Shown here one piece after another: positions 28,918 to 29,684 of a stretch of DNA of 64,000 nt. The notes under the pieces are model-generated. The model worked only from the letters and a program-made list of their open reading frames with translations, was not told the DNA's origin and ran no database searches. The stretch lies in the sequence record OP172784; one strand, 5' to 3'. The position numbers were made by a program, and so were the translations under genes. Every line of letters begins with the position of its first letter. Position 1 is the first letter of the stretch. Origin of the DNA: Escherichia phage ECO07P1.

Positions 28918-29406
28918 ATGAATATATTTGAAATGTTACGTATAGATGAAGGTCTTAGACTTAAAATCTATAAAGACACAGAAGGCTATTACACTATTGG
29001 CATCGGTCATTTGCTTACAAAAAGTCCATCACTTAATGTTGCTAAATCTGAATTAGATAAAGCTATTGGGCGTAATTGCAATGGTGTAATTACAGAAGAT
29101 GAGGCTGAAAAACTTTTTAATCAGGATGTTGATGCTGCTGTTCGCGGAATTCTGAGAAATGCTAAATTAAAACCGGTTTATGATTCTCTTGATGCTGTTC
29201 GCCGTTGTGCATTGATTAACATGGTCTTCCAAATGGGAGAAACCGGCGTAGCAGGATTTACTAATTCTCTGCGCATGCTCCAACAGAAGCGTTGGGATGA
29301 AGCAGCAGTAAATCTAGCCCAATCTAAATGGTATCGTCAGACACCTAATCGCGCGAAACGCGTAATCTCAACATTTAAAACAGGAACTTGGAAAGCGTAT
29401 ATATGA
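28918..29406 (+). CDS. e: endolysin (T4 lysozyme)
   Basis: 162 aa; [35 protein letters not shown] matches remembered T4 lysozyme; C-terminus differs from T4. Confidence 0.95.
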
Positions 29407-29684
29407 AAACATATAGTGAATTTTTATCAGAATCTATTCTTAACGAAGCTACTGACACATTTGCAACTAAGCTAGGTGCAGCTTTGGTTGAAGCTGAAAG
29501 TCTATTAGCACGTATTTCTGAACTTGCTAGTAAGATAGATACTCGCAAATTTGAACGTACCAGCGATATCGTTAAGCTTGAAGCCTTGTTGCGTATGTGC
29601 GATAAACCAGAAGAAATCGCTAAGAACGGCTCGCTAATGAAACAACGTCTTGAAAAATATATCTCAGGCGCTTCAGAAAAATAG
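29403..29684 (+). CDS. 93-aa protein with CTS-like N-terminus (candidate internal protein)
   Basis: [16 protein letters not shown]; ATGA overlap with the e stop. Confidence 0.6.

Follow-up and report, generated by a model that had tools for sequence, protein, structure and literature searches.

An Ip5-family internal head protein gene behind the lysozyme gene e of Escherichia phage ECO07P1

In the 64-kb stretch of the Escherichia phage ECO07P1 genome that was analysed here (sequence record OP172784; hereafter, the window), a short ORF is located between the lysozyme gene e and denV. Its position raises the questions of whether it is a real gene, to which protein family its product belongs, and what this product may do in infection. 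[quoted passage not shown] More than 30 IP variants are found in two hypervariable loci, and their shuffling is thought to proceed via spacers that combine a promoter with a stem-loop (PMC2839356, PMC3012670). The analysis described below indicates that the ORF is probably a functional T-even internal protein gene of the Ip5 family, which is present as a cassette in the e/denV/vs.8 hypervariable locus of Tequatrovirus.

Coding status, family and distribution of the gene

The window is a T4-like (Tequatrovirus) segment in which the plus strand is equivalent to the minus strand of T4, and its closest relatives are complete Tequatrovirus genomes. The sequence and the ORF coordinates agree with the first-pass annotation, according to which a 93-aa ORF begins by an ATGA overlap with the lysozyme stop. 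Gene e ends with ...GCG TAT ATA TGA, the ATG of the ORF occupies positions 29403-29405, and its TAG stop is located at 29682-29684. The ORF is a real coding gene under purifying selection. The dN/dS values were 0.02-0.12 in comparisons with relatives with dS of ~0.2-0.6, and 25 of the 40 differences from the VR20-type sequences were located at third codon positions. An ORF of 114 aa that fully overlaps the gene in antisense (29375..29719, minus strand) was also considered as the real gene and was rejected: it is broken in the VR20-type phages, and the substitutions follow the codons of the plus frame.

The encoded protein matched the profile PHROG 3499 ("internal head protein") with an E-value of 1.2e-46 over profile positions 1-85 of 85. 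Its identity with the Ip5 proteins of phages T2 and RB51 was 47-51% over residues 1-84 (E-values from 1e-15 to 2e-17). The homology with the Ip5 proteins of T2, T6, and RB51 is full-length; the leader is of the same type, and the common core can be written as KLG-A--EA--L--RI-ELA ... EIAKNGS. Searches with the protein against Pfam, NCBIfam, and the PDB sequences gave nothing meaningful, the PDB yielding only weak matches to designed helical proteins. An exhaustive HMMER search, which covered 1.84 billion cluster representatives, found four clusters only (44-61% mutual identity), which points to a narrow family, and scanning of IMG/VR added only 7 further loci.

Megablast analysis of the surrounding 501-bp stretch detected 258 phage records, 238 of them full-length at 95-100% identity. 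In tblastn, 496 phage records with 509 places were found, and these fall into two clades. The first clade (~238 records, at least 89% identity) occupies the e-denV slot and is located directly behind e in every record examined. Comparative genomics of this interval thus finds the same gene in the slot of ~238 phage records, including ip5 of VR20 and the genes of slur14, ime09, Kha5h, and ~230 other Tequatrovirus records (89-100% protein identity). The second clade (258 records, ~47-51% identity) is annotated as Ip5 in the records examined (T2, RB51). Since the 496 records contain only 13 extra places, the clades for the most part exclude each other. Of roughly 896 T-even-type records matching the region, ~496 carry a family member, and T4 carries none. 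In contrast to the window gene of 93 codons that starts at the ATGA behind e, the T2 gene encodes 84 aa and lies in the ipI locus (57B-ip5-ip7-trna.4), where it has its own upstream spacer.

The gene is therefore not new: it is already annotated at the same position in hundreds of genomes. Its name in RefSeq is "internal head protein" in many genomes, and in phage VR20 (Gaprivervirus) the e-denV gene, whose product has 89% identity with the window protein, is annotated as "ip5, similar to bacteriophage T6 Ip5". The features of the window are listed in Table 1.

Table 1. Features of the e/denV/vs.8 locus and other leader-bearing genes of the window
Feature	Position	Strand	Description
Leader gene, ipI locus	21446	+	90 aa
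Leader gene, ipI locus	21779	+	102 aa
Third ipI-locus gene	22158-22382	+	74 aa; PHROG 8765 "internal virion protein"
Leader gene downstream of the tRNA cluster	24642-25205	+	187 aa; leader MKTYAEFLTEA; PHROG 2280 "unknown function"
Two T4 late-promoter motifs TATAAATA	28884-28891 and 28897-28904	+	upstream of e
Lysozyme gene e	28918..29406	+	its TGA stop shares the ATGA with the start of the Ip5-like gene
Ip5-family internal head protein gene	29403..29684 (TAG stop included)	+	93 aa; ORF, PHROG 3499, homology, dN/dS
Predicted capsid-targeting propeptide, residues 1-15	29403..29447	+	Y4, F7, L8, and E10 match mapped IPIII positions
IP-locus spacer element	29686..29739	+	T4-early-type promoter inside a 10-bp stem
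denV (endonuclease V), divergent allele	29743..30156	+	79% identical to T4 denV
Frameshifted internal-protein gene, eighth leader gene, not intact	30163..30420	+	leader MKMYQEFIAEA
ipIII	30485..31063	+	192 aa; 89% DNA identity to T4 ipIII; PHROG 5341
ipII	31105..31407	+	100 aa; 95% DNA identity to T4 ipII; PHROG 7857

Mosaic layout of the locus and its junctions

The order of genes in T4 is e-ipIII-ipII-denV-vs.8, whereas the order in the window is e-ip5-like-denV-pseudo-ip-ipIII-ipII-vs.8, the region 29402-31410 being rearranged relative to T4. The first-pass annotation had described an extra gene between e and denV. The Ip5-like gene is indeed located there, but the word "extra" misleads, since the corresponding interval of T4 already holds ipIII and ipII. 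Identity between the window and T4 is 93% through nudE-e up to position 29401, where the homology ends, and the region 29402-29706 with the Ip5-like gene has no T4 homolog. On the other side, the window continues directly after ipII with the sequence located behind denV in T4 (92% identity). The identity of denV with T4 denV is only 79% compared with 89-95% for the flanking genes, which suggests that the ip5-like gene and denV came in jointly, as one block. Judging by these comparisons, the locus is a cassette swap or rearrangement in the known hypervariable IP locus and is mosaic relative to T4.

The genes following denV differ among phages with the same slot: ip10 and ip7 are found in VR20 (e-ip5-denV-ip10-ip-ip7-vs.8), a 157-aa IP in slur14 (e-ip5-like-denV-ip(157 aa)-vs.8), and the pseudogene with ipIII and ipII in the window. 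SP1 has the layout of the window with the middle gene intact. Compared with the unbroken reading frame of vB_EcoM_SP1 (87 codons, annotated as 84 aa), this middle gene lacks 1 nt at each of two places in the window; either an internal-protein pseudogene is decaying here, or a pair of sequencing errors is responsible. One of the deletions is located in TATT-C-TTTCC and the other in a run of A. At the far end of the locus, the start of the vs.8 homolog is at 31551 and its product has 179 aa, the length also found in slur14, T4 vs.8 being annotated with 219 aa; the frame from the T4-equivalent start meets a stop after ~19 codons (31411-31550). The Rfam scan of the region 28000-32500 gave no match, and the folding of the G+C-rich spacer between ipII and vs.8 was no better than that of shuffled sequence.

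Leader-bearing genes are also located elsewhere in the window. The motif MKT[YF]xEF occurs 6 times in its six-frame translation and was not encountered in 200 shuffles. Eight leader-bearing ORF starts were counted, all on the plus strand and including two degenerate leaders (MKMYQEF at 30163 and MKTCKKF at 22158). The number of seven intact leader genes, given earlier from the sequence, was reproduced by the genes at 21446, 21779, 22158, 24642, 29403, 30485, and 31105. In MKTCKKFIVEA, the leader of the 22158 gene, positions 4 and 6 are occupied by Cys and Lys, respectively; packaging of the gene product may be impaired, given the reported importance of position 4 for targeting (PMC9026906). 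The 24642 gene is located outside both classical IP loci. In another T-even-type contig, apparently the same slot, as judged only from the homologous downstream gene, is occupied by a gene (2501-3118) encoding a 205-aa protein. The leader of this protein, MKTYNEFLNESVLNEA, coincides with that of the Ip5-like protein in 13 of 16 residues, and the remainder is unrelated.

The left junction of the cassette lies within the last codons of e, and the C-termini of lysozyme differ accordingly: AYKNL* in T4, AYENL* in VR20, and AYI* in the window. The overlap of e with the ip5 gene is conserved, being 4 nt (ATGA) in Tequatrovirus and 14 nt in VR20. By manual count, the 3' end of T4 e (ATAAAAATCTATAAAG) and the coding start of the leader (ATGAAAACATATCAAG) are alike at 12 of 16 positions, and we infer that fusion of the cassette to e may have taken place at this microhomology.

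To the right of the gene, the spacer contains a promoter with GTTTAC at 29686-29691 and TACTAT at 29710-29715, separated by 18 nt. The stem is formed by the arms 29692-29701 and 29730-29739, and the predicted fold has an energy of -18.5 kcal/mol (z = -3.0). Elements of this class, with a promoter placed in a stem, have been described for the IP loci (PMC2839356). The ipII-denV spacer of T4 is built in this way too, with changes in both arms of the stem. The 3' arm holds the Shine-Dalgarno sequence of denV, so read-through transcripts from e and the ip5-like gene should hide it, whereas transcripts started in the loop should not. The Ip5-like gene itself has no such element upstream, because it abuts e.

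Leader, candidate gp21 sites and expression

In the leader of IPIII, the first 10 residues are enough for capsid targeting; residues 4 and 7 serve in targeting, and residues 8 and 10 in processing (PMC9026906). The propeptides of IPs have a length of 10-19 residues, and gp21 cuts after the Glu of L/I-X-E (PMC9026906). By T4 synteny, genes 21-22, which encode the prohead protease gp21 and the scaffold protein gp22, should lie outside the 64-kb window.

The N-terminus of the Ip5-like protein had been read in the first-pass annotation as a capsid-targeting leader with two possible L-x-E cleavage sites. This reading is supported by homology and by the sequence rules established for IPIII, with Y4 and F7 at the targeting positions and L8 and E10 at the processing positions. 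Both motifs were found, L8-S9-E10 and L13-N14-E15; residues 11-15 are SILNE, followed by A16. Among the eight leaders of the window, a second [LI]xE is present only in that of the Ip5-like protein. The leaders of T4 IPIII and IPII follow a like logic, MKTYxEF[IL]xE (Y4, F7, [IL]8-x-E10), and their genes share the locus and the spacer type with the Ip5-like gene. However, past the leader, no similarity between these proteins and the Ip5-like protein is detectable, and they belong to different PHROG families. In addition, the propeptides of T4 IPIII and IPII have 10 residues, whereas that of the window protein may have 15.

In the alignment of the Ip5 family, 23 columns are invariant, including M1, K2, T3, and F7, and position 4 is Y or F. 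All members contain at least one [LI]xE within residues 8-15, at a shifting position. The E10 site is common to the window clade and family member P0006, the E11 site is found in P0009, and the E15 site is common to the window clade, VR20, and T2 Ip5. The first motif is absent in VR20, which has LTV instead of LSE, and in T2 Ip5, which has ATK; relative to the latter, the window protein carries an extra L-S-E ending at residue 10. In this comparison, E15 is the candidate site common to the named Ip5 proteins, and the window clade carries both E10 and E15. The predicted mature protein has 83 aa (cut at E10, pI 6.3) or 78 aa (cut at E15, pI 8.1). The pI of 8.1 compares with 9.2 for mature T2 Ip5, and the computed pI of the mature forms IPII* and IPIII* of T4 is ~9.6. 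In the literature searched, no report of virion proteomics or N-terminal sequencing was found for this protein or its family, and we infer its packaging and cleavage from the sequence.

The arrangement of the gene suggests how it may be expressed. TATAAATA is the T4 late promoter motif. It does not occur between e and the Ip5-like ORF, and the pair upstream of e constitutes the only plausible late promoters for both genes. The other seven leader genes have AGGA or GGAG 5-9 nt 5' of the start, whereas only GGAAAG at -13 precedes the Ip5-like gene. The lack of a promoter between e and the ORF, together with the weak Shine-Dalgarno sequence and the ATGA overlap, indicates that the gene is probably co-transcribed with e and translated by coupling to it, late in infection. 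Transcription would start from the two upstream TATAAATA promoters, and the protein would be made during prohead assembly. The leader would then direct it into the scaffolding core of the prohead, as follows from the IPIII rules, and gp21 would remove the leader after E10 and/or E15. The result would be an all-helical, roughly neutral head protein of 78-83 residues.

Possible role of the Ip5-like protein

The AlphaFold model of the protein (mean pLDDT 81.6) contains three helices at residues 4-44, 53-65, and 69-90. A Foldseek search with this model against BFVD and PDB returned only a member of the same family (the putative internal head protein of phage VR26) and noise, and the predicted fold gives no functional clue. 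It differs from that of T4 IPI*, which consists of two beta sheets flanked by helices, in being all-helical.

T4 IPI* (Ip1), Ip2, and Ip3 belong to the same hypervariable gene class as the Ip5-like protein and share its predicted life history of packaging, trimming, and injection. Each of the three inhibits a distinct GmrSD Type IV restriction enzyme (PMC12373910). By analogy with them, the Ip5-like protein would be injected with the DNA and would neutralise a host defence, Type IV GmrSD-like restriction being the likeliest target, and an anti-defence role after injection appears the most likely one. However, Silas et al. obtained no reproducible inhibition when ip4-ip10 were tested against 15 GmrSD groups (PMC12373910), which leaves GmrSD a candidate target of the Ip5-like protein; the ip5 variant in that screen was presumably of the T2/T6 type and not of the window clade. 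Tentatively, the Ip5 family may instead comprise injected inhibitors of a defence outside the GmrSD screen. The clade in the slot behind e, which has the second cleavage motif and would be bound to late co-expression with lysozyme, may then have a target different from that of the T2/T6-type clade, and the near exclusion of one clade by the other would mean that the two represent alternative alleles of one counter-defence function. We regard this version as possible rather than probable.

The protein could also be packaged and yet play a structural part, either in assembly of the core and head or in neutralising or organising the DNA in the head, roles that have also been considered for IPIII. 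The slower head assembly and more numerous polyheads of IPIII mutants (PMC9026906) and the lysine contacts of internal proteins with DNA phosphates (PMC3012670) speak for such a part, as does the fact that no defence target is known for ip4-10. We consider it unlikely, since all three properly tested T4 IPs are restriction inhibitors and only about 496 of the roughly 896 T-even-type records contain a member of the Ip5 family. A family absent from T4 cannot be needed for assembly, and a mature protein that is near neutral would be a poor counter-ion for DNA. Still less probable is that the protein is expressed and left unpackaged, acting in the cytoplasm of the producer cell with a leader that is a relic of cassette shuffling. 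No report of packaging was indeed found in the literature searched, and, unlike the other leader genes of the window, this gene has neither its own promoter nor a strong ribosome-binding site. However, a leader that is only a relic should decay with time, whereas M1, K2, T3, F7, and at least one [LI]xE are kept across four clusters with 44-61% identity, and expression together with e late in infection agrees with the time at which proheads assemble.

The coupling to e could further suggest an accessory lysis protein working with endolysin, and an overlap of the gene with the end of e has been kept in two genera. This is very improbable. The genes of T2, RB51, and the other examined members in the ipI locus are far from e, so linkage to e is not a trait of the family; T4 lysis works without such a gene; and the protein has no obvious hydrophobic segment or signal sequence, its model being a soluble helical bundle.

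The reading preferred here is thus that of an Ip5-family internal protein with a probable role against host defence. The points added by the present analysis are small: the comparison of cleavage sites, the probable dependence of the gene on e for its expression, the mosaic make-up of the locus in comparison with T4, and the possible microhomology junction. The gene is one more case of the well-described leader-tagged, shuffled IP cassettes of T-even phages and matters mainly for annotation. Proteins of the Ip5 family are found in roughly half of the sequenced T-even-type genomes and are candidates for host-range screening.
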